A stretch of 50,745 nt of DNA from a virus, in the IMG/VR virus record IMGVR_UViG_3300045988_077113; one strand, 5' to 3'. Below, in pieces: positions 1 through 50,715 of this stretch. The stretch's first letter is position 1. Each line of letters starts with the position of its first letter. The translations under genes were made by a program, and so were the position numbers. The notes beneath the pieces are model-generated. The model saw only the letters and a list, made by a program, of their open reading frames with translations, was not told the origin of the DNA and ran no database searches.

Positions 1-55
1 ACATTCGGGTGTCCGACTGTTTAAGAAAACAAGACGTTGCAATCTATTTGAAAAT
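1..55. repeat. Terminal direct repeat, identical to 50691..50745
   Basis: 55/55 identity read directly. Consistent with the overlap of a circular contig. Confidence 0.95.
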
Positions 56-88: not shown

Positions 89-1219
89 ATGAAAGAATTA
101 TCCTTCAAAATTCAGGGCGAATTTGTGTGTCACCTGGCCCGTTCCTGGTTCTGGGAAGAAGGCCGCGAATATGAAAAATGCGAAGAACTTCTTCTTTCCT
201 GTCTTATGACGGACGAAATATCCGAAGAAGAAAAGAAGAAAATTGTCGTTGAAATTCTGGAAGGCCGGAAGATCCTTGTCGGCGTGAATGAACTTGAACT
301 TGTAGAGGACGGCGAACGGATCCGGCCGCTGACGGATAAATTCAAAGAGTACCAGAAAAAAGAAATGATCCGAAAAATCGAAGAAGACATCCAGCGGCGG
401 CCGCTGGCTTATCTGGATCCGTATTCTTGCGATAAAAATGTAAATGAATATAAACCGGTTGACAATCTGGTTTTCGATGATGAACGGGACGTTCAGGAAG
501 CCTTCGGGCGTCATTTGACACCATACCAGGAAATCAGATTGTGGGCCTATTCTTCCGAAAATTTATGGTATCATGCCAGCCGACTTCTTCCTGGCTTCTG
601 GGATGAAAAAGAACGAAAGTATCTGGACAACGGCCTTTATTTGATTGAACGGCCTAAACTTGTTTACGAATTGATCGGCGGCCCGGTAACAGATCAGAAC
701 GAAGGAAAACTGTTTGCGCTGTTAAAAAATCACTTGAAATCGCTTGTAGACAATGGGTTCGCCACTGGTGAAAAGGCGAAAGAAATCATACATCGCAATA
801 TGAAGTATGACGCGGCCATGAAAGAAATTAACCAGGAGCGCCAGGAACAGACAGAAGAAAAACCGAATTCCGATCAGCTGAATAGAACCACATCCCCGGA
901 CGATTTCCTTTCCGAATATGGATTGATAGATCCTTCCGGCAATTATTACAGTTGTTCGTTTGCTGGACATCATACGAAAGCACATTATATTTTAAAGGCC
1001 AGGGAAAGAAAGCTTTACGATTTCGACGAAGCCCTGGACAAATTATATTCTGACGGATGGGCGATCATTCGGAACCCAGATCCGGGCGGAAGCGTATTCT
1101 TTGATTACAGAGCCGACAGACGACCAACGAAACGCCAGATCGACACCGCTTTCGACCACATGATAAGATTCAACGAACGCACACTTCCAGGAATTAAAGA
1201 ATATCTTGAACACGAATGA
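89..1219 (+). CDS. Hypothetical protein (376 aa), accessory region
   Basis: Long ORF with SD gaaaggaaaagtgaaaaATG, followed by a hairpin terminator. No family recognised. Confidence 0.6.
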   Translation: MKELSFKIQGEFVCHLARSWFWEEGREYEKCEELLLSCLMTDEISEEEKKKIVVEILEGRKILVGVNELELVEDGERIRPLTDKFKEYQKKEMIRKIEEDIQRRPLAYLDPYSCDKNVNEYKPVDNLVFDDERDVQEAFGRHLTPYQEIRLWAYSSENLWYHASRLLPGFWDEKERKYLDNGLYLIERPKLVYELIGGPVTDQNEGKLFALLKNHLKSLVDNGFATGEKAKEIIHRNMKYDAAMKEINQERQEQTEEKPNSDQLNRTTSPDDFLSEYGLIDPSGNYYSCSFAGHHTKAHYILKARERKLYDFDEALDKLYSDGWAIIRNPDPGGSVFFDYRADRRPTKRQIDTAFDHMIRFNERTLPGIKEYLEHE

Positions 1220-1289: not shown

Positions 1290-1318
1290 TTGACATATTA
1301 CACTTTATAGTGTATTAT
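1290..1318 (+). promoter_or_regulatory. Sigma70-type promoter with embedded palindromic operator
   Basis: TTGACA, 17-nt spacer, TATTAT. The spacer contains TACACTTTATAGTGTA (1299..1314). Confidence 0.7.
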
Positions 1319-1360
1319 ATAGCCATAACAAAGGAACACACAAGGAAAGGAAATAAGCAC

Positions 1361-2101
1361 ATGGCTAGTATAGAATTTATTCAAAAAAGAGTTGACGGCG
1401 CAAAAACCAAAATCGAAAAACTGAATAAGAAGCTAGAAAGAATTGAAATTGCTAAGGCTTCCAACTATGAAGAAAACAACCCGTATTGTTATAGTGATTA
1501 TGACCTTCGATACACGGTTCGCGATCTTGAAGAAGCGAAGGCAAACCTTCAAAAATACGAAAATCAGCTTGCAAAAGAACAAGAAAAGGCCGGAAGTAGA
1601 AACGTTAAAGCGATCAACGACTTCCTGGACAAATGGTTGCAAAACTGTATTGAATATTTCGATTCGGAATATCAAAAATACCAGGCCGCCCTGGAAGAAT
1701 ATTTTCGAAAAGATCGGGAGTATTGCCAGCGCTTTAACAACAGAAGCAATCAGACACCAGAAGAAAGAAAAGCAGACAGAAAAGAACACGACAAAATGAA
1801 AAGAGATTTCCACGCGGCATGGGCGCACGTTACACAGTTCGATCACGGTTCCCTTCCGTGGCGCGAAACAATGGTGAAAGATCTTACCAAGGAAAGAATT
1901 CGAAAGTATGATGATATTATCGAACGGACAAACGAAATCGTCGGAAAGATAACAGACGCCAGTAAACTTCGAGTTTCTCCGAAAGGAAATCTTGATGGTA
2001 TAGTTATCGGCGAAAAAGGCACAGCAAAAGTCCAGACAATCGGTGCTGGTGGATATAATATTCAGTGTTTCCATTTTCGGACGCTTATCAATCCGATGTA
2101 A
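1361..2101 (+). CDS. Hypothetical coiled-coil-rich protein (246 aa)
   Basis: ATG at 1361 preceded by caaggaaaggaaataagcac. The track ORF starts earlier at a non-ATG codon. Lies downstream of promoter 1290..1318. Confidence 0.6.
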   Translation: MASIEFIQKRVDGAKTKIEKLNKKLERIEIAKASNYEENNPYCYSDYDLRYTVRDLEEAKANLQKYENQLAKEQEKAGSRNVKAINDFLDKWLQNCIEYFDSEYQKYQAALEEYFRKDREYCQRFNNRSNQTPEERKADRKEHDKMKRDFHAAWAHVTQFDHGSLPWRETMVKDLTKERIRKYDDIIERTNEIVGKITDASKLRVSPKGNLDGIVIGEKGTAKVQTIGAGGYNIQCFHFRTLINPM

Positions 2102-2132
2102 AGAAAGAGCCGCCCGAAGGCGGCTTTCTTTC
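2101..2132. terminator. Bidirectional intrinsic terminator
   Basis: AGCCGCC-cgaa-GGCGGCT flanked by an A-rich 5' side and a T-rich 3' side, between convergent genes. Confidence 0.7.
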
Positions 2133-4138
2133 TAATCTTTCCCATTCGGCCCGTGTTCGCAAGCGATTAACTGTTCGCCGCAGATCGGACACCGTTCAAT
2201 TCCACATTTCCAATGGTGCCAGCGGCCGGCCTGGGCGGAACATTCAGGACACACAGCACCGGCGACGCCGTGGAACTTGTCGCCTGGATCCCCGACCTTG
2301 ATCCGGCGGTATGGCTTACCGGCGAAATCGAAGGTTCTTGTCCGACATCCGCACGTCGAACCGATACGGCCGCCGCACTTCTGACAGACCGGAAGATCCG
2401 CCGGGGTTGAATATGTGAATTCATGGACAAGACCGTTCACGAACCGGATTGACTGGACGCGGCCTTCCAGAATTTCGATCCGGTCGATTACCTGATCGAC
2501 AAAATCCTTCAGGATTTCGTTGTCCAGGTCAAGGGCCATCTGGATATAATCGACGTGTTTCTTCGAAACGATCCTTTGAGCGACCAGGAACGCCGACGCC
2601 TTCCTGATGAATTCCAGGTCGGCCAGATCGTCCTTGTCGCCCGTGGCCTGGCTGGCTTCGATCTGTTTTTCATATCCGGCGATCTTATTCACAAGATCCC
2701 TTTTCTTCTTTGCGAATTCTTCTTTCGTCATGGAATCGGGATCGTAAAGATAAAGATCCGTCAACCGGTCGATCGCGGTCTTACACTTATCAAGTTCGCG
2801 TTTCAGAATGGAAAGCTGTTCGGCCGCCGTGTAATCGTCGTCACTGCCTGAAAGGTCGATGTCCGGCAGATACGCACCTTTTCCGACTTCCTGGAAGGCC
2901 AGGGCGTCGAACGTCCGGCGAAGGCTTTCTTTGCTGACCTTCATATTTTCGAATTCTGGCCCCTTCAAAAGTTCCTTTTCCAACTGTTCCAGGGTTTTAA
3001 TGTTCTTAAAATTCTTCTGGATCCGCGCCAGGTTCGCCACATAGTTAAAGATAAACGGACCGATGTAACTTTCGTTTACCGTCTTCGAGTTGTCGCAGTC
3101 CATCATTCGCGACCGCTGTGCGCAACGGTACATTGACGGCCGCCAGCCGTTCGCCCTGGCTCTATCCTTCGACGCGATCATATTCGCGCCGCACTTGCCG
3201 CACACCAGCCGGCCGGAAAAGGTGTGAACGTACTTCCTGGCCCGAAGGTCGGACGTGTCACGGCTGGTTCCGTTTTCATCCATTATCGCGTTGCAACAGT
3301 CGAACTGCTCCTTCGCGATAATGGCCGGGTGATTATTTTCCCGGACGATCCATTCGCTTTCCGGCTTCAATGGGCCGCGGCCGGACTCACGCAAATTATA
3401 CCGATACGTCCCGATATAAAACGGATTTCGGATAATATCACGGATCAGCTTCGAAGTCCACTGGCCGCCACGCTTCGACGCGATCTGATTGTGGTTCAGA
3501 TACCGGGCGATCTTCGTTGTGGAACGAACCCGTTCGTATTCGTCGAAAATAAACTGGACGATCTTCGTTTCTTCTGGATCCGGTTCCGGGAATTTGATTT
3601 CCGGGTTCCAGCGATAGCCGACCGGCATACGCGCACCATTCCACAAGCCCTGTTCCGCACGATCCAGCATGATTCCGGTTACACGTTCGGAAGTCATGTT
3701 CCGTTCAAGTTCGGCGAAAATCAGAATGATTTTCAGCATAGCTTCGCCGATGGCGGTCGAAGTGTCGAACTGTTCGTTCATCGAAATAAATGTGACCTTG
3801 TGGTCTTTTAATTCCTGGTACATCGCCGCGAAGTCCAGAAGATTTCGGGATACACGATCCACCTTCCAGACGATCAGGTGGGAGAATTCCCCGTCCCTGA
3901 CACGCGACATCATTTCTTGAAAATGCGGCCGATCGGTATTCTTCGCCGAATAGCCATCGTCTTCAAAAATCACAAAATCTTCAATTCCTAAAAATTTACA
4001 GTATTCCTTTAACTTTTTACGCTGAAAAGGAAGACTGTCTTTATCAACCTGATACCTTGTCGAGACGCGGACGTATAGGGCCGCTTTCTTTTTCGACCAG
4101 AATTTCAGAATCTTTTTCTTATTCCTGACATAAGCCAT
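2132..4138 (-). CDS. Large serine recombinase (phage integrase type) with extra Cys-rich C-terminal domain
   Basis: N-terminal resolvase motifs ALYVRVSTRYQ and VDRVSRN. Recombinase and zinc-ribbon region (CGKCG), coiled coil, then a roughly 90-aa tail with several CxxC pairs. Confidence 0.9.
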   Translation of the reverse strand: MAYVRNKKKILKFWSKKKAALYVRVSTRYQVDKDSLPFQRKKLKEYCKFLGIEDFVIFEDDGYSAKNTDRPHFQEMMSRVRDGEFSHLIVWKVDRVSRNLLDFAAMYQELKDHKVTFISMNEQFDTSTAIGEAMLKIILIFAELERNMTSERVTGIMLDRAEQGLWNGARMPVGYRWNPEIKFPEPDPEETKIVQFIFDEYERVRSTTKIARYLNHNQIASKRGGQWTSKLIRDIIRNPFYIGTYRYNLRESGRGPLKPESEWIVRENNHPAIIAKEQFDCCNAIMDENGTSRDTSDLRARKYVHTFSGRLVCGKCGANMIASKDRARANGWRPSMYRCAQRSRMMDCDNSKTVNESYIGPFIFNYVANLARIQKNFKNIKTLEQLEKELLKGPEFENMKVSKESLRRTFDALAFQEVGKGAYLPDIDLSGSDDDYTAAEQLSILKRELDKCKTAIDRLTDLYLYDPDSMTKEEFAKKKRDLVNKIAGYEKQIEASQATGDKDDLADLEFIRKASAFLVAQRIVSKKHVDYIQMALDLDNEILKDFVDQVIDRIEILEGRVQSIRFVNGLVHEFTYSTPADLPVCQKCGGRIGSTCGCRTRTFDFAGKPYRRIKVGDPGDKFHGVAGAVCPECSAQAGRWHHWKCGIERCPICGEQLIACEHGPNGKD

Positions 4139-4940: not shown

Positions 4941-5393
4941 CTAGCCCGTTTCTTTGTTCCGTTCTGGTTCGACCGGCGGAAATTCCTTTTCCAAGTCTTC
5001 CGGTGTCTTCGGCACATCGCCGAACAAGTCTTCGTCCATTACTCCGGTTTCTACCACATTATAAAAGAAATCTCTTACCGTCTGGCGCTGTTCGGCGTCT
5101 AATTTCAAATACTGGTAAACCAGATTATAACTGAAATCATCAAGCCCGAATTCCTTTTTTAATTGTTCCATTGTAGAAGAAGGCGTTTCAATAAACATTT
5201 TCCCTTCCCCAGTCCGAAGCCATTCTTCCGATACACTGAATGTATTACATATATCAAGTATCGTTCTATCAGAAGGATTTCTTTTACCTACTTCGATTAA
5301 AGAAATAGAATTCCTTTTCAGATTAAGCATTTCGGCAAAATCCGCTTGACTCAATCCTTTAGCTTCACGAACTTCTTTGATTCGTGCGTTCAC
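4941..5393 (-). CDS. XRE-family HTH repressor (CI-like)
   Basis: N-terminal HTH (GLSQADFAEMLNLKRNSISLIEVGKRNP). GTG start with SD aaaggaagtgataaaGTG. Adjacent to the operator/promoter cluster. Confidence 0.85.
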   Translation of the reverse strand: MNARIKEVREAKGLSQADFAEMLNLKRNSISLIEVGKRNPSDRTILDICNTFSVSEEWLRTGEGKMFIETPSSTMEQLKKEFGLDDFSYNLVYQYLKLDAEQRQTVRDFFYNVVETGVMDEDLFGDVPKTPEDLEKEFPPVEPERNKETG

Positions 5394-5878: not shown

Positions 5879-6043
5879 ATGGCAAACACCACCACAGACA
5901 AAAACGTCACGATGGTTCGCAAGGAAGACAAGAACTTCATTCGTTCCATGATGTCACTTCCCCAGGATAAGAAAATTCTGATCCAGGGAATTCTGATCGG
6001 CCTGGAACTGCAAGAGAAACAGACCGCAACGGCGGCCAGATAA
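5879..6043 (+). CDS. Small hypothetical protein (54 aa)
   Basis: ATG preceded by cagaaagggggccgtattt. Too short for the ORF track. Confidence 0.4.
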   Translation: MANTTTDKNVTMVRKEDKNFIRSMMSLPQDKKILIQGILIGLELQEKQTATAAR

Positions 6044-6126
6044 GGCCGCCAGCACTTCGACATATAGCCAGGAAGCCGACTGCAATCGGCGGCTGATGTT
6101 GGAAATAAGCGAAAGGAAAATTGAAT

Positions 6127-6999
6127 ATGGATAACTTTAGAATCTATGACACAATGTTCCGGTTCAATAACGAAACCGAACGACCTTCGGGCGGATGGCG
6201 ACGGAACCAAAAATTCGTTCACGACGCGTATTTTTGGAAAATTCTTAATATGCTGAAAGACGAAGGCTTCGACGTACACCACGACGAAAGCGTTTCGAAG
6301 ATAATTCGAAGGAATTACATCAAAGGAAAACGAAGGGACTTAAAATTCAAGGCCCAGCGATTCCCGGCCGGATTCGAAATTGTTTTCTATCAGGACATTG
6401 TCCACGAAAACCCACACGGCGGTTTTTATGATTTTGATAAACGGCGAAAAATGCCGTACCTGATTGGGCTTCAATATGAAAAATATATGAACCTGATCGT
6501 AAAGAAAATAAAAAGCCTTGTGGAAGTTAAAGACAGATCCAGCATAAAGACAAAGACAGCGGAAGAATGGGTAAAAGCGCGGTACGTTGAATCGTGCCAC
6601 TATCCGCAAACCGACATGAATTTTGATCTTCACGCGCTGGACGGGCAAGGCCACGAAGGCCAGTATGGCCTGGATCGCGACGGAAAAGAAATTCACAACG
6701 GCGACATTAAATACTTCCGTTACTGGTACGACGGCCGGGTATATCGCGGCCGGGTATATTACGATCTCAACATGAACTGGATTGTTATTTTAAACAAAAA
6801 GGACACACGCGTCATTTCTTGCTGGGAATTGTTCGATCTTACGCCGGAAGACAATCTTCACCGGATGAAGGATCCGACGCGATCAGAAGGTTATAAAAAG
6901 TATATGGCCCACCTGGAAAAACTGAAAGCCGAAAAGACAAAGGAACTTGTGATTGAGTTAAAACGCCGCGGCTATGCGGTGAAGATAGAAAGGAAATAA
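6127..6999 (+). CDS. Hypothetical early protein
   Basis: Long ORF. ATG at 6127 follows aaaggaaaattgaat. First gene of a tightly packed four-gene set. Confidence 0.6.
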   Translation: MDNFRIYDTMFRFNNETERPSGGWRRNQKFVHDAYFWKILNMLKDEGFDVHHDESVSKIIRRNYIKGKRRDLKFKAQRFPAGFEIVFYQDIVHENPHGGFYDFDKRRKMPYLIGLQYEKYMNLIVKKIKSLVEVKDRSSIKTKTAEEWVKARYVESCHYPQTDMNFDLHALDGQGHEGQYGLDRDGKEIHNGDIKYFRYWYDGRVYRGRVYYDLNMNWIVILNKKDTRVISCWELFDLTPEDNLHRMKDPTRSEGYKKYMAHLEKLKAEKTKELVIELKRRGYAVKIERK

Positions 7000-7003
7000 G
7001 CAA

Positions 7004-7291
7004 ATGACAAGAGAAAAATTCCGGTTCGCCGGACAGACCGTGAAGGTCAGAAACGAGATCCCGAAGTTCGGCGGCGCCGACTTCACAATCGAAGACTACT
7101 GGCAGAATGTGACCGGTGGCCTTTCCTGGATGGATAGCAACGGCAACCCGGCCGCGATGATGTACGCGATCCGTACCGGTTCCCAGGGCTTTGACGTCCC
7201 GATCGACAACGAAGTCGTTTATGGAAAGATCGGTTCACTTGGTTATCTGTTCCATGTGTCCGAACTGATTCTTCCGAAGGAAGGAGAATAA
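7004..7291 (+). CDS. Hypothetical protein (95 aa)
   Basis: ORF with SD. 4-nt gap to the upstream gene. Confidence 0.55.
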   Translation: MTREKFRFAGQTVKVRNEIPKFGGADFTIEDYWQNVTGGLSWMDSNGNPAAMMYAIRTGSQGFDVPIDNEVVYGKIGSLGYLFHVSELILPKEGE

Positions 7292-7295
7292 GCAC

Positions 7296-7535
7296 ATGGC
7301 ACAGGAAAAGGAAATCAAGAATTTTGTTTTCAACTACACCGACGGCACAAGCGAAACCGTCGAAAAAGGTTTCTTTTGCAAGATCAAAGACGAACCAAAC
7401 GGCGAAGCGACATTGAGTTTCGAAATGGTCGGCGTATCTGGAAAAGACCTGACACAAATTGTTCTGGGTTGCGTCGAGTTGGGCGCGCGCCTGGGAATGT
7501 TCGATAAAAAGGAAAGTGAGGAAATAAGCGAATGA
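7296..7535 (+). CDS. Hypothetical protein (79 aa)
   Basis: ORF with SD ggaaggagaataagcacATG. Its stop overlaps the next start. Confidence 0.55.
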   Translation: MAQEKEIKNFVFNYTDGTSETVEKGFFCKIKDEPNGEATLSFEMVGVSGKDLTQIVLGCVELGARLGMFDKKESEEISE

Positions 7536-8503
7536 GTAACACAAAGGAAAGCGTTGTTTTGAAGTATGACGACATGGGGATCCCGTCCATCATGTTAAAG
7601 GTTGAGAACACGGCGAAGACGCCGGAAGAAGCCGACAGAATGTTCTTCGTCCGTGGCGTTGAGTATGACGCCGTATATCTTAGCCGCTTCGTGAATTGCG
7701 TCCAGAACGGCCGCGCGTATTCGTTGCCGCTGATGGATCCGAAGGTATCTATCGACATGGACGACGCGATCGCGGCTTGTAGAAAGAAGGGCGCCGGCTG
7801 GCACTTAATGACCGCCATCGAATGGAACTGGTTAAGAAAGCACACGAACCAGGATGTCCACGGGAACACCTGGAAAGGACACTATTACAATGACGAAACC
7901 GAAGTCGGAATCAAAGTCCCGAACACCTGGCGGACGCTGACCGGATCCGGCCCGGCTTCCTGGTTCCATAACGGGAACAAAGAAACGGGCGTCGCTGATA
8001 TGGTCGGCCTGGTTTGGAAAATGATCGCCGGTATTCGCTTAAAGAATGGCGTCTTCCAGTATATGCCAGACAATGACGCGGCACACCCGGAAGCCGACCT
8101 TTCCGAAAGAAGCCAGGAATTCAAGGAAGTTTACATTGACGATCTTCCGTTCCCGGATCCGGTAAAGATTGGCCCAGGCGAAGACGGCTTGATGATTACA
8201 ACGTCCGGCGAAGTGGAAGGCTGGGACGCGGTAAGACGTCACGACGTGATTGTTGATCTTCCGGCGGACAAGATCCCGGAGATCTTAAAGGATTTAGGGA
8301 TCATCACCGAAGGCATGGACAAAGACGACGCCTGGTTCGCGGCTGACGCAGACCTGGACGAAGCGGTGTGTTACGTCTCTGGCGGTTACAACAACGCTTC
8401 GAACGCTGGCCCTTCCGCGTTGAGCTTGAGCAGCCCGCGTTCGTACGTCTGGTCGAGCATCGGCTTCTTCTCCGCTTGTTTAGGGGAACCTGTTATCCGG
8501 TAA
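7532..8503 (+). CDS. Second (remote) DGR target protein, C-type-lectin/FGE-like fold, paralog of 43147..44208
   Basis: Full-length similarity to the fibre-module target (for example RFVNCVQNGRAYSLPLMDPK vs KFINCIVDGLAYSWPLVDPK, and TGSGPASWFHNG vs TGSGPATWFHDG). The C-terminus contains VR2. Confidence 0.85.
   Translation: MSNTKESVVLKYDDMGIPSIMLKVENTAKTPEEADRMFFVRGVEYDAVYLSRFVNCVQNGRAYSLPLMDPKVSIDMDDAIAACRKKGAGWHLMTAIEWNWLRKHTNQDVHGNTWKGHYYNDETEVGIKVPNTWRTLTGSGPASWFHNGNKETGVADMVGLVWKMIAGIRLKNGVFQYMPDNDAAHPEADLSERSQEFKEVYIDDLPFPDPVKIGPGEDGLMITTSGEVEGWDAVRRHDVIVDLPADKIPEILKDLGIITEGMDKDDAWFAADADLDEAVCYVSGGYNNASNAGPSALSLSSPRSYVWSSIGFFSACLGEPVIR
8375..8478 (+). repeat. DGR variable repeat 2 (VR2)
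   Basis: 104 bp aligned by hand to TR 44737..44840. 11 mismatches, every one at a TR adenine. Confidence 0.9.
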
Positions 8504-8518
8504 CTGAAATCTGTATTC

Positions 8519-8532
8519 CGCGCGATAGCGCG
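8519..8532 (+). promoter_or_regulatory. GC hairpin with GATA loop downstream of VR2
   Basis: CGCGC-GATA-GCGCG begins 41 nt after the last VR2 base. A second hairpin GGCCC-GTAA-GGGCC is at 8539..8552. Confidence 0.6.
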
Positions 8533-8566
8533 TTAATTGGCCCGTAAGGGCCGGAAAGGTGGAACC

Positions 8567-9079
8567 ATGTATAAACCAACGATCAACACATCATACAAAG
8601 GCGTATGCAGATTATACGAAACGTGCGGCCGTTCTGATTACTGTTTACGCGCCGCCGAAGACATTCTTTTTATTCACGGCTTCGATATTAGAAAAACGCC
8701 TGGATATGAAGACCTTACATCCGATCAGAAAGACCTGTTCGCCGCCCATTGCGTAAAGTACATGAACAGCGTCGGAATGAACACAAAGATCACTATGTAC
8801 CCGAAAACGGTTCATTTCGTCCGCGAATATCAGTATTGTTCTTTCCCGGAATGGGACGAAGAAATCCAGAAAAACATTCGCTGGCAGATCGGCCGCGAAT
8901 GGATCATCTTAAAAGCCAACGGCCGGACAAGGAAGTTCAAAAAGTACCTGGACGACGACAGAACCGAAGCCGACATCGACAAGACGGTCACGAAGGAATT
9001 TGAATATCTTCGCGTTGACTGGCGGCAGAATGGAACGAATGTCTGGTTCCACGTTACGGCCCCGGATGAATACTATTAA
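8567..9079 (+). CDS. Hypothetical protein (170 aa)
   Basis: ATG at 8567 preceded by ggaaaggtggaacc. Confidence 0.55.
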   Translation: MYKPTINTSYKGVCRLYETCGRSDYCLRAAEDILFIHGFDIRKTPGYEDLTSDQKDLFAAHCVKYMNSVGMNTKITMYPKTVHFVREYQYCSFPEWDEEIQKNIRWQIGREWIILKANGRTRKFKKYLDDDRTEADIDKTVTKEFEYLRVDWRQNGTNVWFHVTAPDEYY

Positions 9080-9091
9080 GGCGGTGAGAGT

Positions 9092-9265
9092 ATGAAGAAA
9101 ACAAACGAAGGCCAGAACGGCCAGGTTGAGAACTTAAAAAGCATTTTAGAGGGTTTCGGAATCAAGACGTCGAAGGAACTTGACGCCGCACTTTCGGAAA
9201 CCCTGGACGCCCTGACAATCGGCATTATGACAGACCGCGCGATCGGGGCGAGAAATTCAGCATAA
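9092..9265 (+). CDS. Small hypothetical protein (57 aa)
   Basis: SD aaggcggtgagagtATG. Preferred over the antisense track ORF 9076..9270. Confidence 0.45.
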   Translation: MKKTNEGQNGQVENLKSILEGFGIKTSKELDAALSETLDALTIGIMTDRAIGARNSA

Positions 9266-9367
9266 AGCAAAGGCGCAACGTCAAAGATTGGAACCCTGAC
9301 ACGTTGCGCCCGATGTTGGCCGCGTTTTGGACACAGCCTTTAATAATTATAGGGGAAACGTGAAGAA

Positions 9368-9598
9368 ATGTCAATCGTTAGAAATACAAGGGAAGCCCCG
9401 TATTACATAGACGGAATCACAAAAGCAACGGATCCGTTCTGGAAAGTCTATTGTACTTGTGGTTTCACGTTCCTTTCGTGCATTTCAAACGGCAAGTGTC
9501 CGAAATGTGGGCGCGTGGAAGGTAAACGAATGTTAGGCGATAGAACTTTCGAAGAAGTCGTCGCGGAACGCGGACAGCCGCGGCCGCTGGAAGAATAA
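9368..9598 (+). CDS. Small zinc-ribbon protein (76 aa)
   Basis: Contains CTC...CPKCG. SD ggggaaacgtgaagaaATG. Confidence 0.5.
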   Translation: MSIVRNTREAPYYIDGITKATDPFWKVYCTCGFTFLSCISNGKCPKCGRVEGKRMLGDRTFEEVVAERGQPRPLEE

Positions 9599-9685
9599 AT
9601 CAGAATAAATCAGAGTTTATCAGAGTAAATCCGACTTTATCAGAGTTTATCAGAGTTTATCAGAGTTTATCAGAGTAAATCAGAG
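9596..9685 (+). repeat. Nine tandem 10-bp iterons (WWWATCAGAG), tubC-like centromere
   Basis: Exact 10-bp period: TAAATCAGAA, TAAATCAGAG, TTTATCAGAG, TAAATCCGAC, TTTATCAGAG x4, TAAATCAGAG. Immediately upstream of the wHTH + tubulin gene pair. Confidence 0.8.
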
Positions 9686-9703
9686 AAAAAAGGCGGTGAA
9701 ACT

Positions 9704-9961
9704 TTGAACAGACTAGGCTTTATCGTTTTGTCGATCCTTTCCCAGAATGGGGCGACGAACAAATTATCTTCGATGTCGGTTCAGGAGATTTCCGACACGG
9801 AAGAATTCGGTTATAAGCCGAACACAATCTTCAAAAAAATCAAGGAATTCGAAGACGCCGGATATATCGGCCGCGGCTTGAAGGAAGGCCGGGCGGACAC
9901 GTTCTTCATCACGGACACCGGACGGGAATTCCTGGAAGGGGCGAAGCATGAAACGAAGTGA
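9704..9961 (+). CDS. tubR: Small winged-helix DNA-binding protein, TubR-like centromere binder
   Basis: 85 aa with a wHTH pattern (VQEISDTE...NTIFKKIKEFEDAGYIGRG...FFITDTG). TTG start after aaaaaaggcggtgaaact. Position is between the iterons and the tubulin gene. Confidence 0.6.
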   Translation: MNRLGFIVLSILSQNGATNKLSSMSVQEISDTEEFGYKPNTIFKKIKEFEDAGYIGRGLKEGRADTFFITDTGREFLEGAKHETK

Positions 9962-10026
9962 CGCCAGAACAGAAACGACAACCGGACGAAAAACGTCCGA
10001 TAATACCACGAAGGGAGAATCAGAAC

Positions 10027-11061
10027 ATGAAAAATAAAATTGCTTTTGTAGCGGTCGGCCAGGCCGGCGGCAACATTGGACAGCTTTTCGAAGATCGGGG
10101 CTTTAATGTCCTTTACATCAACACGTCCCAGGAAGACCTTGACACCCTGGAACACGCAAAATATAAATACCACATTCCGGGCGGTGAAGGTTGCAATAAG
10201 AACCGCCGGAAGGCGAAACAGCTTGTGATCGACGACTTCGACCGTATCGCGGCAGAGATCGAAACCAAAATCAAGGCAGATCTGACGTTCGTTATCTTCG
10301 CCAGCGGCGGCGGAACCGGTTCAGGAGCCGGCCCGATGTTGATTGACCTTTTAATCGACGAAGGCCGCGCCATCGGAGCGATCACGATTGTTCCGGGGCA
10401 GAATGAAAGCGTGAAGGCGCATATCAATTCTTACGACTGTTTTTCAGAGTTGACAGAAATCGCCGGAACGGCCGCTTGCTTCATCCTGGACAACGACCGC
10501 GCGGAAAAATTGTCAATCAATACTTCCTTCGTGGACGACTTCTGTTCGTTCCTGGAAGTGCCGGAGAAACACAAGAGCGTGAAGGGCAATATCGACAAGG
10601 CCGAAATCATGGAGACACTAAGCGCCCACGGAATGGCCCTTGTGACGTCCAGAAAGGCCCAAAACAGCGCCGAAACGATTAAGGCTATACAAGATAACCC
10701 TTACGCCCCTATCGAGGGCGACAGAGCCGTTAAATACATCACAGCGTCATTGTCGGACGGTGTGACCATGCCGGAACTGGAAAAAGCGATCGGAACCCCG
10801 ATCGACACCTTCCAGACCTTCAATGACGAAGGAACCACAATTTGTTGTATTTCGGGGCTGACTTATCCACAATCACGTCTGGATATTGTGTATAAAAAGG
10901 TGGATGAAAACAAAGAGGTGATCGAAAAGAACCTGACGGCGACCAGAGAAACCCGGATGAAGAAATCAATTAACTTCCTGGACGACCTGGAACCGCCGAA
11001 GAAGGCGGCAGAAGCCCCGAAGCCAAAGTCAAAACGGGACATTATGAGCAAGTATTTATAA
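10027..11061 (+). CDS. tubZ: Tubulin/FtsZ-superfamily GTPase, TubZ-like
   Basis: Tubulin signature GGGTGSG (FASGGGTGSGAGP) and N-terminal VGQAGGNIG phosphate-binding loop. SD gaagggagaatcagaacATG. Confidence 0.8.
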   Translation: MKNKIAFVAVGQAGGNIGQLFEDRGFNVLYINTSQEDLDTLEHAKYKYHIPGGEGCNKNRRKAKQLVIDDFDRIAAEIETKIKADLTFVIFASGGGTGSGAGPMLIDLLIDEGRAIGAITIVPGQNESVKAHINSYDCFSELTEIAGTAACFILDNDRAEKLSINTSFVDDFCSFLEVPEKHKSVKGNIDKAEIMETLSAHGMALVTSRKAQNSAETIKAIQDNPYAPIEGDRAVKYITASLSDGVTMPELEKAIGTPIDTFQTFNDEGTTICCISGLTYPQSRLDIVYKKVDENKEVIEKNLTATRETRMKKSINFLDDLEPPKKAAEAPKPKSKRDIMSKYL

Positions 11062-20211: not shown

Positions 20212-20276
20212 AATGTCGTATTTCATGTCGTGTTTTATGTCGTAAAAATGTCGTAAAAGATGTCGTGGAAATGTCG
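20212..20276 (+). repeat. Six direct ATGTCGT heptamers at 11-12-bp spacing
   Basis: Copies start at 20212, 20224, 20236, 20247, 20259 and 20270. Confidence 0.85.
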
Positions 20277-20285
20277 TGTTCCCGT

Positions 20286-20390: not shown

Positions 20391-20951
20391 ATGAACACGG
20401 TCGAACCGATCCGGGACATGGATCTTGTTATGGATCTGGCCGACTATCTGAAATCGAACAACGAAAGAGATTACGTCCTTTTTATGTTCGGAATTTATAC
20501 GGGCCTTCGAATTTCTGACATCCTAAAATTTCGCGTGCGCGATGTAAAGGGGAAAGACGCGGCTTATATTCGAGAGAAGAAAACCGGGAAGGAAAAGCGT
20601 TTCCCGATAAATTCAGAGTTACGGCCAGTTATCGACGAATATATTTCCGGGAAGCGTGACTTTGAATATCTGTTCCGTTCCCCGAACTATCAGAACAAAG
20701 CAATCACACGCCAGCAAGCCTATAACATATTATCGGCGGCCGGCCGGAAGTTTGGCCTGGACAGCATAGGAACGCACACATTACGAAAGACGTTCGGCTA
20801 TCATATGTACCAGCAGACACACGACGCCGTGACACTGAAAGAGATCTTCAACCATGCAGACATAAGCGTCACACTTCGGTACATCGGGATCAACCAGGAC
20901 AACAAAGACAAACTGATTAAGGGCCTGACCTTCAAGCATGGCCGCAAATAA
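20391..20951 (+). CDS. Small tyrosine recombinase (186 aa)
   Basis: Catalytic signature GLRISD, HTLRKTFGYHMY and HADISVTLRYIG (R, HxxR, H, Y). Confidence 0.85.
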   Translation: MNTVEPIRDMDLVMDLADYLKSNNERDYVLFMFGIYTGLRISDILKFRVRDVKGKDAAYIREKKTGKEKRFPINSELRPVIDEYISGKRDFEYLFRSPNYQNKAITRQQAYNILSAAGRKFGLDSIGTHTLRKTFGYHMYQQTHDAVTLKEIFNHADISVTLRYIGINQDNKDKLIKGLTFKHGRK

Positions 20952-32728: not shown

Positions 32729-32892
32729 GGCACGATTCCGGGGCCGACATTCAAAAAACGGCCGTCCATCTTGCGATGGCAACAAACACCGGAATAGATT
32801 TTTTCACAGATCTTCCGCTTGACGAGTATATCGACATAGCAAAGGAAGTGAGCGAAATTGGCAAAGAAAACAAGCTACGAACTGGCGCTTGA
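32324..32892 (+). CDS. Predicted -1 frameshift extension of the chaperone (E+E'-like)
   Basis: T TTT TTA at 32707..32713. The -1 frame stays open for 59 sense codons (32713..32889) to TGA at 32890..32892, overlapping the tape-measure start. Confidence 0.55.
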
Positions 32893-35800
32893 AATCGGTG
32901 GAAAAATCCAAAGTTCACTCACGAAATCGGTTAGTGGAGTTAATAACAAATTAGATTCAATCGGAAAAGCCGCAAAAACGGCCGCGAAGATAGCAACAGC
33001 CGCCTTCGCGGCCGTAAAAATTGGCGATTTTGTCAAAGACGCGGTGGACACATATTCGGAATTTAACCAGGCAATGGCCGAAACGGCCGGTATTGCCGGA
33101 GCGACCGAAGATGAATATAAACAGCTTCAAGCGGCGGCCCAGGAGATGGGAAAACGCACGACTAAGACAGCCACGGAAGCCGCCCAGGCATTAGGTTATA
33201 TGAGTTTGGCCGGCTGGAACGTGAATGATTCTATTTCGGCGCTGGAACCGGTTCTCCGCTTGTCGGAAGCTACTTCGATGGATCTAGCCACCTGTTCGGA
33301 CTTGGTAACTGACTCAATGAGTGCGTTGGGCCTGGGCGTTGACGATCTGACAAATTACTTGAACGTCGCTGTCCAGGCGAATAACAAATCGAACACAACC
33401 GCGCAAGCCTTAATGGAAGCGATGATCGGTTGTGGTGGCGCCGCAAAATCGGCCGGTATGGACTACAAGCAGACCGCCGCGGCCCTGGGTATCCTTGCGA
33501 ACAATGGTATCAAGGGAGCGGAAGCCGGAACGGCTTTGAACTCTATGCTGGTTCGAATGACAACGAAAGACGTCGCGCAGAAAGCATTTAAGGAACTGGG
33601 CGTTTCTATTTACGATAGTTCCGGCGCAATGCGGAATATGCAAGATATTCTTGTGGAATTAAACGGCGCGATGTCTGGATTGTCCCAGGAACAGAAAAAC
33701 AACTACATGGCGGCAATCGCCGGCACGAACTATTATACCCAGTTCGGCTATTTGTTGGAAGGCGTCGCAGAAGGCGCAGACGGGGCCGCGTCCACCTGGA
33801 CACAGCTAACGGAAGCCTTCGATAATTCCGACGGCGCCCTGGACGCAATGGCCAACACCATGACGGACACGTTACCGGGCGCAATAGCGATTTTTGGTTC
33901 GGCGGTCGATGACGCTAAAATTCGATTGTGCGAGGTATTTGCGCCACTTGCAAAGGACGCAATCAAAGGGGTTGCTGATGTGATCCCGTCGATTACTGAC
34001 CGCGCGGTCGGCGTTGCACAGTCATTTTATAACACAGTCGTTCCGGCGGCGGAGAATTTCGCGAAGAAAGCAATCGCGGCCTTTAACCAGGCGAAGCCAG
34101 CTTTTGACGAAATTCGCACGAAAGCCACGGACGCATTTATTTTTTTACGTGATACGGGAATCACGGCCTTCGAGAATATCAAGGCGAAAATTGAAGAAAA
34201 CAAGCCAGCGATCGACAAAGTGATCGCGGTCGCCCTGGATCTGAAAGACAAATTGTTCCAGGCATGGGAGATAGTGAAACCGGCCATTTCCCAAATTGCA
34301 ACGGTCGCAATCCCGGCCGTTATCGGGGCCATGATGAAAGTTATCGGGGCCGCGGCGACAGTTTATCAGAAATTAGATGAATGGGGACTTCTTATCCCGA
34401 TTATTACCGGAATCGCCGGAGCAGTTGCGGCGGTGAAGATGGTTGAATTCGCAAAGGACACTATGAACACGGTAAAAGCCGTCAAGGCCCTTGTGGTAGT
34501 GTTTGGCGCGGAAAAGAAAGCTATGATCGTGAACCTTGCGTTGAAAGCAAAGGACAGGCTGGAAACGGCCTATCTCTACGCATTATACGCAAAGGACGCA
34601 GTTGTTAAGGGAATCAGCACAGCGGCCACATGGGCGCAGACGGCGGCCTTGACAGCCTGGAACGCGATTTGTGCGGTCGGAACGGCCGTTACTTCGGCGC
34701 TGGGCGTGGCTTTCGCATTTCTAACAAGTCCGATTGGACTTGTATGTGTGGCAATCGCGGCGGTTATTGCGATCGGCGTGTTGCTATATAAAAACTGGGA
34801 CACCGTGAAAGAAAAGGCGTCACAGTTGGGCGACTGGATCGTCGGCGCATTTAACAACCTGAAAGAAAAGGCTTCGGCCGCAATTCAGGAATTCGCAGAC
34901 AAATTCCCGGTTGCTTTTGCGTTCCTTTCGTCTGTATTCGAAAGTTGGAAACAGACGATCACAAATATCTTTTCGGGCGTGAAACAGGTCTTCCAGGGCG
35001 TCGTTCAGTTTATTAGCGGCGTCTTCACGGGTGACTGGTCGAAGGCCCTTGACGGACTGAAAAATATCTTTTCAGGTGCATTTCGCGCCCTGTCTTCGCT
35101 GGCGCTGGCGCCCCTGAACGCGCTGAAAGGCGTCGTCGTGGGTGCTTTTAACGCGATCGACACAGCGACAGGCGGAAAGTTATCTGTAATCAAAAACAAG
35201 GTTTCAGACGCGTTTTCGTCCATCAAAAAAACAGCCGGATCCATCATGCAAGCGGCGAAAGATACGATTTCTGAAAAGCTATCGAATATCAAGTCCGCGT
35301 ATGAGGAACACGGCGGCGGAATTAAGGGAATCGCCGCGGCGGCAATCGAGGGCGTAAAAGGCTACTACACGGCCGGATATACCTTCATAGATAAATTAAC
35401 GGGCGGAAAATTGACCGCGATCAAGGAGAAATTCTCCAAAATCTGGTCGCAGATTTCCGAAAAGGTAAGTGAAGCCTGGACGACGATAAAAAATATCGTG
35501 AAAGTCGGGGTTATGCTGATCGGCGAAATCATTTCGGCCGCTTTTCAGATTATCACGCTTCCGTTCCAGTTTATCTGGCAGAACTGCAAGGACACGATCC
35601 TTTCAGCCTGGGAGTTTATCAAATCAACCGTTTCGGACGGAATTCAGAAGGTCAAAGACACGATTTCGTCTTTCCTTTCTCCGATCGTAAACGCGGTTTC
35701 GGGCGCCTGGTCGTCCGTAAAATCAGCCACAAGTTCGGCCTGGTCGGCGGTGAAATCCGCGACAAGTTCAGCCTGGACGGCGGCGACCGGTTATATTTCC

Positions 35801-36991
35801 GAAAAAATTAACGGCGCGAAACAGGTTGTTTCGTCCGTGACTTCAACGATCAAATCAACCGCTTCGGCGGCCTGGTCGTCCGTAAAATCAGCCACAAGTT
35901 CGGCTTGGTCGGCGGTATCGTCGGCAACAAACACAGCCTGGACGGCGGCAAGCGGCTATATTTCGAACAAAATTAACGCCGCGAAAGCGACCGTTTCTTC
36001 GGTTGCTTCATCCATTCGATCAACCGCTTCGGCGGCCTGGTCGGCGGTATCATCCGCGACAAATTCAGCCTGGACAACGGCGACGGGTTATATCTCAAAC
36101 AAGATTAACGCCGCGAAAGCGACAGTTTCTTTGGTTACTTCGTCCATCCGGTCAACCGCTTCGGCGGCCTGGTCGGCGGTGTCGTCTGCTACAAGTTCAG
36201 CGTTTGAAAATGTCCGGGCAACTATGAGCAACAAAATAAACACAGCGAAGGCGAATGTGTCGTCGGCATTATCGGGAATCCGTTCGGCCTTTTCTTCCGG
36301 CTTATCCGCCGCGAAGAACACGGTCACAAGTATTTTCGGGAATATCGTGTCGGCGATCAGTGGAAAGATGGAATCGGCGAAAAACGCCGTATCAAACGCG
36401 ATCGGCGCATTAAAAAGCAAATTCAACTTTTCCTGGAGCCTTCCAAAGCTGAAACTTCCGCACGTTTCTATTTCGGGCGGTTTTTCAATCAATCCGCCTT
36501 CTGTTCCCCATTTCGGGATCAGTTGGTATAAAAACGGTGGTATTTTAGACAAACCGACCATCTTCGGGGCAAGTGGAAACAACCTTTTGGGCGGCGGAGA
36601 AGCCGGCAAAGAAGCGGTTCTTCCGCTGACTGAATTGTGGTCGAATATGAAATCCATCGTCGCCGGAGTCGTCCAGGGCAACCAAAACGACGGCGCGGCT
36701 TCTATTTTCGACAGAATGAAACAGCTTGTCGGAATCCAGAGCAACGGCCAGCCGGCGGAATCAGTCACGAAACAGCTTTACAACAACGTGACAACCAGCA
36801 ACACAACCAACAAAACGAAGGAAGATAATTCTTCAACGGATAGTTCGAAATTTGTCTATTCGCCTTCGGTTGTGATCCAGGGCAACGCAAGCAAGGAAGA
36901 CGTGAACGAAGCCCTTGAAATGTCACAGCAGAAGTTTAATGAAATGATGGACAGATGGAAGAAGGGGAAGGAAAGGACTTCATTCGCATAA
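32858..36991 (+). CDS. Tail tape measure protein (1377 aa)
   Basis: Size, position, Ala-rich helical composition and internal repeats. TTG start after aaaggaagtgagcgaaa. Confidence 0.9.
35705..36300 (+). repeat. In-frame tandem repeats within the tape measure gene
   Basis: GCCTGG anchors at 35705, 35870, 36035 and 36167 give units of 165, 165 and 132 bp. An 11-aa AWSxVxSATxS sub-repeat is nested within them. Confidence 0.85.
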
Positions 36992-42798: not shown

Positions 42799-43154
42799 AA
42801 ATTATCGAAGCAAACGAAGGCCAGAAGATTTCCTATTCCACAACGAAAACCTGGCTGAACGTCGGCGATCAGATCATGCTGAATCTGAAAAAATACGAAG
42901 CCGACAACGACGTCCATATCGACATTACTTCGGATATGGCCGGCAACCTGGAAACCGGTGTCGGTCTTCTTTATGTGGCACAGGTGGACATTCCGGCCAG
43001 AGCCTACACAGAAGAAGAAATCCCGAACCCGGACTATTCCGAAGAAACAGAAAACAGCCAGAAAACAATTATCAAGCGCGATCCGGTTCCGTTCTCTATG
43101 GACAACGTGACCTTGACACTGTTCGCGCTGAAAGAAGGTGTAATCTATGAATAA
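42795..43154 (+). CDS. Hypothetical fibre-module protein (119 aa)
   Basis: ORF overlapping the start of the DGR target gene. Confidence 0.5.
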   Translation: MKIIEANEGQKISYSTTKTWLNVGDQIMLNLKKYEADNDVHIDITSDMAGNLETGVGLLYVAQVDIPARAYTEEEIPNPDYSEETENSQKTIIKRDPVPFSMDNVTLTLFALKEGVIYE

Positions 43155-44208
43155 TTACCAGTTTGACAGCCTGAAATTCGCCACGGAAGGATTGACTGGC
43201 GGCGGTTGTACCATTATTTCGGACGTCAAGGGCCTTCCGTCCTTTATGATCCCGTTTAATAAGCGCACAAACGCCCAGTTATTCGACGGCGGAAGCGAAA
43301 AGACACATTCGGCCTTTGTGGTTGACGATGTGGAATACAAGCGCTTCTTTTTTAGCAAATTTATTAACTGTATTGTGGACGGCCTGGCCTATTCCTGGCC
43401 GCTGGTGGATCCGAAAGCGTCCATCAATTACGACGCGTCACACGCGGCTTGTAATGCGAAGGGAACGGGCTGGCATTTAGCGTCAATCCCGGAACGTGCG
43501 GTCATTAACCATTTGATTTATAAATCCGGCTTTATTCCGCGCGGTAACACCCAGTACGGAAAACACCACACATACACTTACGAGGTGGGCGAGACAACCG
43601 CAACCGAAGGCGACGGATCAGGCGGAACAAGAACAACCAGAACCGCGACCGGATCCGGCCCGGCGACCTGGTTCCATGACGGAACGCGAAACGGTATCGC
43701 TGATTACGTGGGTGACGTCTGGAAATGGATGTCCGGCCTTAGAGTTTATAAAGGCGAAATCCAGATCTTCGTCGGCAACCTGGCCGCGAAGCAGGTTTCA
43801 CACCTTGCCGCGTCCACATATTGGAAGGCTATTCTTCCGAATGGTAGCCTGGTAGAACCTGGAACGCCTGGAACATTGAAATATACAAAGGATTTCAAGA
43901 TCGCAACTGATACCGGCGCGGCCGGCAGTACCTACACACCAAGTTTCGGAAATCTTGTGGCCGGAACCGGCGTGACAACGATCCCGGAGATCTTGAAGGA
44001 ATTATTCCTTGCACCGGTAAGCGGCGTCACACATACCGGCGGTTTTTGGATCAACAACGAAGACGAGCGCTTGCCGGTTGTCTCTGGCGGTTACAACTGC
44101 ACTTCGAACGCTGGCCCTTCCGCGTTGTACTTGCTCGGCCCGCGTTCGAACGTCTGGACGGACCTCGGCTTCTTCTCCGCTTTTATGGAGTTGGAATCTG
44201 CAATCTGA
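43147..44208 (+). CDS. DGR target protein 1 (Mtd-like receptor-binding candidate, C-type-lectin/FGE-like fold)
   Basis: Last gene of the fibre module. The C-terminal 40 codons are VR1. Paralog of 7532..8503. Confidence 0.9.
   Translation: MNNYQFDSLKFATEGLTGGGCTIISDVKGLPSFMIPFNKRTNAQLFDGGSEKTHSAFVVDDVEYKRFFFSKFINCIVDGLAYSWPLVDPKASINYDASHAACNAKGTGWHLASIPERAVINHLIYKSGFIPRGNTQYGKHHTYTYEVGETTATEGDGSGGTRTTRTATGSGPATWFHDGTRNGIADYVGDVWKWMSGLRVYKGEIQIFVGNLAAKQVSHLAASTYWKAILPNGSLVEPGTPGTLKYTKDFKIATDTGAAGSTYTPSFGNLVAGTGVTTIPEILKELFLAPVSGVTHTGGFWINNEDERLPVVSGGYNCTSNAGPSALYLLGPRSNVWTDLGFFSAFMELESAI
44063..44183 (+). repeat. DGR variable repeat 1 (VR1)
   Basis: 121 bp aligned by hand to TR 44720..44840. 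17 mismatches, all at TR adenines. Confidence 0.9.
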
Positions 44209-44224
44209 TAGCCGTGTTCTGTTT

Positions 44225-44244
44225 GGGGCTACGATAGTAGCCCC
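44225..44244 (+). promoter_or_regulatory. GC hairpin with GATA loop downstream of VR1
   Basis: GGGGCTAC-GATA-GTAGCCCC begins 42 nt after the last VR1 base and is followed by a T-rich run. Confidence 0.65.
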
Positions 44245-44277
44245 TATATTTTTGAAACACAAGAAAGGATTGCAACA

Positions 44278-44697: not shown

Positions 44698-44719
44698 TTT
44701 CCGGTAGAGGGAACAGGTC

Positions 44720-44840
44720 AAAAACGCTTGCCGATTGTCTCTGGCAGTTACAACAACACTTCGAACGCTGGCCCTTCCGCGTTGAACTTGAACAACCCAC
44801 GTTCGAACGTCAGGACGAACATCGGCTTCTTCTCCGCTTA
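44720..44840 (+). repeat. DGR template repeat (TR)
   Basis: Non-coding copy of VR1/VR2. It carries A at every position where the VRs differ. Begins 23 nt after the avd stop. Confidence 0.9.
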
Positions 44841-48898: not shown

Positions 48899-48916
48899 AT
48901 GCGTTTATGGGATATA

Positions 48917-50714: not shown

Positions 50715-50715
50715 G
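50686..50715. promoter_or_regulatory. Candidate attP core: near-perfect 30-bp palindrome
   Basis: CTCAAACATTCGG-GTGT-CCGACTGTTTAAG with 11/13 arm matches. Weaker T-rich symmetry extends to about 50673..50727. Confidence 0.35.

Follow-up and report, generated by a model that had tools for sequence, protein, structure and literature searches.

The viral sequence IMGVR_UViG_3300045988_077113 from IMG/VR, 50,745 nucleotides long and here referred to as the window, comes from a temperate Blautia/Lachnospiraceae phage in which a single diversity-generating retroelement (DGR) diversifies two paralogous single-domain C-type-lectin proteins. One of these, T1, is encoded beside the DGR cassette after the baseplate genes. 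The other, T2, is encoded in the early region, and comparisons with related sequences indicate that the variable repeat (VR) at the 3' end of its gene, VR2, is almost certainly an active second target of the element. The genes and repeats concerned are as follows (window coordinates):

44725..44840, plus strand: template repeat (TR), of which VR2 uses 44737..44840
44278..44697, plus strand: Avd accessory protein (PF22296 bAvd, E = 3.8e-21, above the curated cut-off)
45052..46179, plus strand: DGR reverse transcriptase (RT; RVT_1 E = 1.1e-21; IGNLTSQ and FVDD motifs)
43147..44208, plus strand: tail-type target T1, 353 amino acids (aa), following the baseplate genes, with VR1 at 44068..44183
7532..8503, plus strand: early-type target T2, 323 aa, a TaqVP-like single-domain C-type-lectin protein whose subtype is that of formylglycine-generating enzyme (FGE) (phrog_2889, E = 3.9e-61)
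8375..8478, plus strand: VR2, codons 282-316 of the 323-aa T2, with mismatches to the TR at adenines only

The TR is flanked by the Avd and RT genes. An [I/L/V]GxxxSQ motif is a mark of DGR RTs, and the window RT shares 41-43% identity with those annotated as such in Clostridium phage Saumur and Faecalibacterium phage Lagaffe. When the entire window was scanned without gaps using TR positions 44737..44840, the places with 60% identity or more were the TR itself, a repeat at 8375 (93/104) and a repeat at 44080 (91/104), and no third VR came to light. In this alignment, VR2 differs from the TR at 11 positions (8384, 8396, 8424, 8430, 8433, 8437, 8444, 8450, 8453, 8457, and 8478), and each of them is a TR adenine that has changed to G or T; there are no differences at non-adenines, just as the sequence-only reading had it. 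With 24 adenines in the 104 nucleotides of the TR, the probability that 11 of 11 mismatches fall on adenines is 1.1e-8. These adenines are located in codon position 1 or 2 in 23 of 24 cases, mostly in AAC codons. The 17 adenine differences previously given for VR1 are an overcount, as there are 13 over the same 104 nucleotides and one more (44077) in the longer 5' homology, making 14. The last VR2 difference, at 8478 (TR A to G), is a G in 15/15 VR2 orthologs examined and hence is a fixed boundary base and not a diversified site.

T2 orthologs are present at 12 IMG/VR loci and 4 genome loci (Blautia glucerasea MSK.18.94, Lachnospiraceae AM48-27BH, Firmicutes CAG:194, and an uncultured Clostridium). 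Outside the VR, four viral contigs share approximately 97% identity with the window; inside VR2, each has 14-17 differences from it, and TR adenine sites account for 61 of the 62 differences. Among seven close orthologs, the varying columns comprise 23/24 TR adenines versus 2/80 other positions (Fisher 1e-19), and in a second clade, in which T2 is 69% identical, they comprise 22/25 TR adenines versus 0/79 other positions. Each of 13 VR2 orthologs has 9-17 mismatches to the TR, with only 2 non-adenine differences in total. Three related contigs have a TR identical over 104/104 nucleotides; their VR1 differs at 10-14 adenines, and a VR2 locus is present on one of them. At the protein level, entropy across 115 T2 homologs peaks at the residues encoded by TR AAC and AGG codons, and the 90%-identity cluster of T2 has 4787 member sequences, with distinct VR peptides in 16/16 sampled.

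The TR of the second clade (contig L005) has 7 non-adenine differences from the window TR. The L005 VR1 and VR2 both have these 7 changes and depart from the L005 TR at adenines only, 9 in each case. Transfer from TR to VR is thus seen in the comparison between genomes, with an invariant TR and a VR2 that tracks clade-specific non-adenine changes of the TR. This concerted evolution of VR2 with its own TR is the strongest argument for a live target. Outside the VR, the ratio of nonsynonymous to synonymous polymorphism (pN/pS) of T2 is 0.07-0.19 between close relatives and 0.35 between the two clades, and by this measure the remainder of T2 is under purifying selection; within the VR, the values are 0.15-0.24 for pN and 0-0.04 for pS. 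The suggestion that VR2 is a live second target of the single DGR is therefore borne out, VR2 being hypervariable between samples and the TR invariant. At this between-sample level, neither of the two contrary outcomes named beforehand, non-adenine differences or a monomorphic VR2, was seen.

The region around the 3' end of VR2 contains an adenine-free segment and two hairpins, of which the segment and the first hairpin may direct the cDNA to its target; the corresponding VR1 hairpin is listed with them:

8460..8477, plus strand: adenine-free 3' segment TCGGCTTCTTCTCCGCTT, identical in VR1 (44165..44182) and TR (44822..44839)
8519..8532, plus strand: GC-rich hairpin CGCGC-GATA-GCGCG, 41 nt after VR2, a putative DGR target-recognition hairpin/cruciform
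44225..44244, plus strand: VR1 hairpin GGGGCTAC-GATA-GTAGCCCC, 42 nt after VR1, with the loop GGTA in L005
8539..8552, plus strand: second hairpin GGCCC-GTAA-GGGCC, just before the ribosome binding site (RBS) of the next gene

The TR/VR homology stops directly after TCGGCTTCTTCTCCGCTT. By analogy with the BPP-1 model (PMC3240598), this segment would act like the initiation of mutagenic homology (IMH), at which cDNA integration starts. The published target hairpin of BPP-1 and other phage DGRs has a GC-rich stem of 7-10 bp with a 4-nt GRNA loop and is located 4-34 nt from the VR (PMC3240598). The GATA loop of the VR2 hairpin fits this consensus. The stem covaries, with the GATA loop throughout: it is CGCGC/GCGCG in the window, CCGCGC/GCGCGG in loci L017 and L018, and CCACGC/GCGTGG in the clade with 69% identity. 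The hairpin is retained in relatives down to 58% protein identity. The second hairpin also has a compensatory stem change in the 69% clade (GGCCG...CGGCC), with a loop that varies. We considered whether the hairpins downstream of VR2 are intrinsic terminators and rejected this, since no T-run follows and the RBS of the next gene begins at once. A limited literature search did not find it stated that the early ortholog group has its own covarying, presumptive homing hairpin. The mechanism, which is well supported, is mutagenic retrohoming that also reaches a second site in trans: RT and Avd reverse-transcribe the TR RNA with errors at adenines, as in standard DGR biology, and the mutagenized cDNA replaces VR1 beside the cassette. 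It also replaces VR2 (8375..8478) in trans, at the 3' end of 7532..8503. As the anatomy suggests, targeting would occur via the adenine-free segment 8460..8477 and the GATA hairpin 8519..8532, elements whose arrangement and spacing are those seen at VR1.

T2 is a full-length paralog of T1, as previously noted (36% identity, E = 5e-49, residues 13-317 versus 26-347). A profile of T2 homologs matched the Thermus aquaticus protein TaqVP (PDB 5VF4) with an hmmsearch E value of 5.9e-50 over profile positions 11-305 of 318. The AlphaFold2 (AF2) model of T2 has a predicted TM score (pTM) of 0.83, with low confidence in the variable loop only, and matches 5VF4 in Foldseek with an E value of 4e-22 and a TMq of 0.75. 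VR2 is located at the 3' end of an open reading frame (ORF) with a C-type-lectin fold. No obvious signal peptide or membrane segment was found when the T2 sequence was read by eye. The tail-type proteins share an N-terminal extension of approximately 13 residues and several inserts, and the early-type proteins are without these.

The distance between TR and VR2 depends on the form of the genome. The window ends match over 55 identical nucleotides (1..55 and 50691..50745), which makes the window a circular assembly whose unit measures 50,690 bp, the overlap possibly being of k-mer origin. Contig L002 spans the junction and runs continuously from the lysin gene through g89 to the integrase. On the circle, TR and VR2 are 14.2 kb apart across the junction. 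Homology between the window and the chromosome of Blautia glucerasea begins at approximately window position 50658, which implies that the integrated map has the window order and that TR and VR2 are approximately 36 kb apart in the prophage. The distance of 36 kb that had been stated between target and cassette therefore holds for the linear prophage map and not for the circular form. The region around T2 contains the following regulatory and partition features:

4941..5393, minus strand: helix-turn-helix (HTH) repressor, divergent from the T2 operon (phrog_8/4/3 repressor families)
9599..9689, plus strand: 10-bp iteron array ATCAGAGTTT, approximately 8 copies, a putative tubC centromere before tubR
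9704..9961 (tubR) and 9958..11061 (tubZ): partition cassette, with TubZ Pfam matches

Before the T2 operon, the minus strand encodes a serine recombinase (2132..4138) and the HTH repressor, by which divergent promoter-like sites are located at 5395-5506. The plus-strand series consists of a 54-aa ORF, 6127..6999, 7004..7291, 7296..7535, T2, 8567..9079, 9092..9265, and 9368..9598, after which come the iterons, tubR/tubZ, and a replisome organiser gene. This order is kept in both close clades. In agreement with the earlier description, the T2 gene is located between the lysis/lysogeny switch and the partition cassette, divergent from the HTH repressor and upstream of TubR/TubZ; the lysogeny module and opposite-strand genes set it apart from the late operon. 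A megablast search of 6000..9200 against 50,697 phage records gave zero matches, and Rfam and tRNA scans of the window detected no RNA genes.

Several other observations were made on this map. The repressor is 36% identical in L013 and L016, otherwise the closest genomic relatives, versus 93-96% in L002 and L012; this mosaic immunity module makes them heteroimmune variants of one phage. Two cargo genes without an assigned function (89..1219 and 1310..2101) occupy the stretch from attachment site to integrase. They are variable in relatives: L002 and L013 have no 1310..2101, and L016 has neither gene, its homology beginning just after the integrase. A second, shorter iteron array is present in inverted orientation at 48911..48963, after the lysis genes. 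In IMG/VR contig 3300045988_008683 (L005/L026; array at approximately 3555..3611), the DGR/lysis end is joined to the inverted early region at the iteron arrays; this is either a true inversion of the approximately 11-kb lysogeny/early segment or an assembly chimera. On the minus strand, 9374..9346 is a perfect consensus promoter-like site (TTGACA, 17 nt, TATAAT) aimed into 9092..9265, 8567..9079, and T2; it may give rise to an antisense transcript or be a chance match. Outside the early region, the tape-measure gene (32858..36991, 1377 aa) contains tandem repeats at 35698..36254 with periods of 132-165, approximately 2.3-2.7 copies, and 80-84% matches. Short tandem repeats of ATGTCGTATTTC and ATGTCGTAAAA, approximately three copies each, are located at 20213..20277, before ORF 20391..20951 and upstream of the terminase genes, and may be a putative regulator binding site.

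The genes adjoining T2 are the following:

6127..6999, plus strand: optional neighbour, 290 aa (phrog_7674, unknown function)
7004..7291, plus strand: optional neighbour, 95 aa (phrog_18626)
7296..7535, plus strand: small gene, 79 aa, with a stop that overlaps the T2 start (ATGA)
8567..9079, plus strand: downstream gene, 170 aa, conserved after T2 in the TubZ-phage lineage

The set 6127..8503 is tightly spaced, as had been reported (6999/7004, 7291/7296, and the ATGA overlap at 7532..7535). The idea that its four genes form a functional module did not hold, because some close relatives lack 6127..6999, some lack 7004..7291, and none of the three upstream genes is found beside the orthologous target in Saumur or Lagaffe. 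The first, 6127..6999, is absent in L006 and L010, and 47% homologs are found upstream of T2 in L017/L018; 7004..7291 is absent in L002, L005, L008, L009, L011, L012, and L014; and 7296..7535 is present throughout the two close clades and absent in L017/L018, Saumur, and Lagaffe. The model of the 6127..6999 protein (as 6121..6999) has an AF2 confidence score (pLDDT) of 90.9 and, as its only recognizable part, a small Tudor/SH3-like barrel; its best PDB match is not significant (E = 0.05), and among viral proteins it significantly matches just one, which is unnamed. Searches of Pfam, NCBIfam, and PADLOC yielded no match for 6121..6999, 7004..7291, 7296..7535, or 8537/8567..9079, and NCBIfam and PADLOC gave none for 5879..6043 or 9368..9598. 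In PHROGs, only unknown-function families were matched by 6121..6999 and 7004..7291, and none by 7296..7535, 8537..9079, or 9368..9598. Homolog searches with 6121..6999 and 8567..9079 likewise returned hypothetical proteins only, including all 63 homologs of 8567..9079. A few of the longer homologs bear a PF26211 label, which hmmscan did not confirm. We also considered the upstream trio as a duplicated tail-fibre cassette and dismissed this, as the three genes are not paralogs of tail-module genes. The 57-aa ORF at 9092..9265 (MKKTNEGQNGQVENLK...) is under the default ORF cut-off; ORFs of 55-57 aa at the same place after the 8567 homolog in L017, L018, L033, and L034 suggest, by position and size, that it is probably a real small gene.

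A tblastn search against annotated phages revealed the same target pair in Saumur and Lagaffe, in which the early T2-type orthologs are WAK79604.1 and YP_009797231.1, respectively, and the tail-type copies are WAK79546.1 and YP_009797217.1. By bit score, the Saumur early copy groups with the T2 family and the tail copies group together likewise, which indicates that the duplication is older than the split of the Saumur, Lagaffe, and window lineages. The tail cluster is kept in the three phages: homologs of 40745, 42134, and 42795 are followed by T1, Avd, and RT, with a 41764 homolog in Saumur only, and the g42134 and g42795 homologs precede the tail-type copy only. The genes around the early copy differ among the three and include, across lineages, methyltransferases, a PAPS reductase, and exonuclease or replication genes. 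More distant relatives of the window phage (one prophage each from Lacrimispora indolis and Anaerocolumna xylanovorans, and two ENA contigs of 51 kb) have the order recombinase, repressor, variable small genes/methyltransferases, a 47% homolog of 6127..6999, a T2 ortholog (58%), the 8567 homolog, and tubRZ. Gene calling in L033 (2956..5549), a 51-kb relative, gives a 442-aa protein in which the T2 ortholog is joined to part of a C5 DNA methylase (PF00145), with two more methylase fragments ahead of it; this is either a broken upstream methylase gene or a gene-calling artefact. As far as a limited literature search goes, the conservation of an early-region ortholog group in Blautia/Lacrimispora/Anaerocolumna TubZ-phages, Saumur, and Lagaffe was not found stated.

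The window element shares many features with the BPP-1 DGR (Mtd, Avd, TR, and Brt): an IGxxxSQ-type RT, Avd, a TR, and a VR at the 3' end of a gene for a C-type-lectin protein, as well as adenine-only differences, AAC codons in the TR, and adenine-free 3' homology with a GC hairpin of GRNA-type loop downstream of the VR. However, BPP-1 has one cassette-adjacent target; the window phage has two, one of which is at a distance of 14 kb (circular form) or 36 kb (prophage). T1 and T2 are single-domain, TaqVP-like proteins, in contrast to Mtd, an obligate trimer with three domains. The window hairpins are also further from the VR than that of BPP-1, at 41-42 nt, and the VR2 stem is 5-6 bp long. TaqVP, from a Thermus aquaticus prophage DGR, has been described as a monomeric, single-domain FGE-type C-type-lectin protein without the fibre-attachment domains of Mtd (PMC6328139). 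It resembles T2 in full-length homology, in the FGE-subtype fold, and in its C-terminal VR, but is only approximately 26% identical to T2 and is the only, cassette-adjacent target of its own DGR. In the profile alignment, T2 is the shorter protein, TaqVP having longer loops and approximately 14 extra N-terminal residues.

Lagaffe and Lagaffe_CP (NC_047911; PMC5883640, PMC11792537) have a tail cluster with homologs of g40745, g42134, g42795, the target (gp26, by the baseplate), Avd, and RT. Lagaffe gp40 is, like T2, an early paralog, encoded between integrase/DNA-binding genes and exonuclease, Gam, and ERF (recombination/replication) genes, and 11/11 mismatches of Lagaffe VR2 are at adenines. 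Variability of the two Lagaffe VRs among cognate genomes was published in 2024, and its authors take the target pair as a doubled host-range device (PMC11792537). In contrast to the window phage, Lagaffe has an IS30-type integrase and no TubZ, and its early-target neighbours are unrelated to those of the window. Furthermore, gp40 (L021 31798..33060) has a 115-aa acidic/helical C-terminal extension after the VR, so that the VR is internal (codons 269-303 of 420) and not 3'-terminal. In Saumur (ON453901; prophage of Enterocloster clostridioformis YL32), a tail-type target adjoins Avd and RT, and an early target (44213..45193) is located between a PAPS-reductase-like gene and a replication initiator gene. 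Its VR2 has 15/16 mismatches at adenines, and an 8-bp, GAGA-loop hairpin comes after it. The two Saumur copies pair with those of the window, the early one with T2 and the tail one with T1, but Saumur has ParA/ParB in place of TubZ and is without homologs of the window's T2 neighbours. One published paper on Saumur contains no mention of a DGR.

Two-target phage DGRs have already been published for the tentaclin phages (PMC10743442) and for Lagaffe_CP, Lelie, and CP11 (PMC11792537). In the gut phages nd4/nd12, which encode the tentaclins, one TR likewise serves two VRs in two C-type-lectin proteins, but both targets are inside the cassette, the proteins are topologically unrelated, and one of the genes has its VR at the 5' end (PMC10743442). 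The Bacteroides phage Quimbyvirus (PMC8008677) has a single DGR and two C-type-lectin targets, one by the tail genes and the other distal. The distal target is located among defence/counter-defence genes and was judged non-structural by Benler et al. in 2021 (PMC8008677). Quimbyvirus differs from the window phage in that it is an unrelated phage from another host phylum, its RT is encoded in three frames, its distal target is on the opposite strand, and its two targets are not described as full-length paralogs. Two-target phage DGRs, one of them with a target judged non-structural, are therefore already known, and the window phage adds another two-target case. A non-structural binder had been put forward as an unusual use of a phage DGR, and with Quimbyvirus on record such a use would not be unprecedented.

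In light of its position and strand, T2 is probably expressed with the early genes. Whether its role is a non-structural one is, in our judgment, an evenly balanced question. The reading that we favor, at about even chances, is that T2 would be an early-made, soluble, non-virion binder with a part in phage-host conflict within the infected or induced cell, where it might attach, for instance, to a variable component of the host or of a competitor. We favor it because the early position is conserved, the early copies form a separate ortholog group without the N-terminal extension, no adaptor genes accompany them, and the neighbours are of an early accessory/counter-defence type. T2 is not in the tail/baseplate module; it is located between the repressor and tubRZ, without paralogs of the tail-module neighbours. 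Several points weigh against what we propose for VR2 and T2. The variation of VR2 was measured between samples and not inside one population, and the VR2 hairpin falls outside the published range in both stem length and distance. The placing of T2 among the early-expressed genes is based on position and strand alone, and a limited literature search found no virion proteomics or genetic data for the window phage, Saumur, or Lagaffe, and no transcriptomics for the latter two. No anti-phage or anti-defence match was found in PADLOC, Pfam, or NCBIfam for T2 or its neighbours. T2 keeps the whole T1 fold and draws on the same TR, so it could recognize surface ligands of the same class and attach to the virion. 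Finally, the experimentally characterized phage DGR targets are all receptor-binding or virion proteins (PMC3240598, PMC8144416).

These last points are also those which support a second receptor-binding protein at the baseplate or fibre tip, with T2 docking alone or in competition with T1 to give virions with two diversified specificities. We consider this a substantial alternative, though a less likely one. T2 is homologous to T1 over its full length, the studied phage DGR targets, such as BPP-1 Mtd, are in the virion (PMC3240598, PMC8144416), this reading has been put forward for Lagaffe_CP (PMC11792537), and T2 has a weak match (E = 1e-4) to phrog_5302, annotated "tail protein". However, at least three diverged phage lineages keep the gene early and never in the tail module, the early-type group is without the tail-type N-terminal extension and inserts, T2 is without the two small upstream genes found with every tail-type copy, and opposite-strand genes and the lysogeny module separate it from the late operon. 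It is improbable that T2 is instead a prophage-expressed lysogenic-conversion or superinfection-exclusion factor, a diversified sensor of incoming phage or competitor components that protects the lysogen. T2 does adjoin the immunity region, the distal Quimbyvirus target is in a defence island, and DGR-diversified C-type-lectin domains are reported as putative sensors in systems of cellular conflict (PMC10907252, PMC10053308). Yet T2 is divergent from the repressor, where a repressed lytic operon would sit, and no promoter-like site is found directly upstream of 7296 or 7532. Moreover, T2 has no effector domain, PADLOC gave no match for T2 and nine neighbouring proteins, and the neighbours are not kept with T2 across lineages. 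The least credible view is that VR2 is a fossil or passive bystander, either a duplicate that was homed once or a silent recombination stock for T1. The paralogy alone and a VR2 hairpin stem shorter than that of VR1 would fit it, but in the diverged clade VR2 matches its own TR at non-adenine positions, VR2 is different in every relative with changes limited to TR adenine sites, the T2 ORF is intact in all loci with a pN/pS of approximately 0.1-0.2 outside the VR, and the early-type group predates the split of the Saumur, Lagaffe, and window lineages. The concerted evolution and hypervariability led us to rule this view out.

Returning to the non-virion reading, we tentatively suggest, at somewhat less than even chances, that the early-type TaqVP-like proteins (T2, WAK79604.1, gp40, and >900 relatives) are an old class of non-virion early DGR binders in temperate myophages of gut Clostridia. 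Such a protein might serve as an "intracellular antibody" that is re-randomized against a fast-evolving host defence or competitor protein, separately from the tail-tip target on the same template.

In this widespread group of gut Clostridia prophages, a remote target that forms its own ortholog group among the early genes is as active as the tail target. Large DGR surveys look only beside the RT (PMC8144416) and hence miss remote targets. Two near-identical 104-bp repeats with hypervariable sites also explain the breaks and mis-joins of such phage genomes in assemblies. The layout of a tail-type and an early-type target recurs in other gut phages, and the same architecture is available in cultured systems: Saumur in E. 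clostridioformis YL32 (a member of the OMM12 consortium), Lagaffe in F. prausnitzii A2-165 and B. hansenii, and the prophage of Blautia glucerasea MSK.18.94. If T2 is not in the virion, phage DGRs would serve more than host-range switching, as has been suggested once, for Quimbyvirus.

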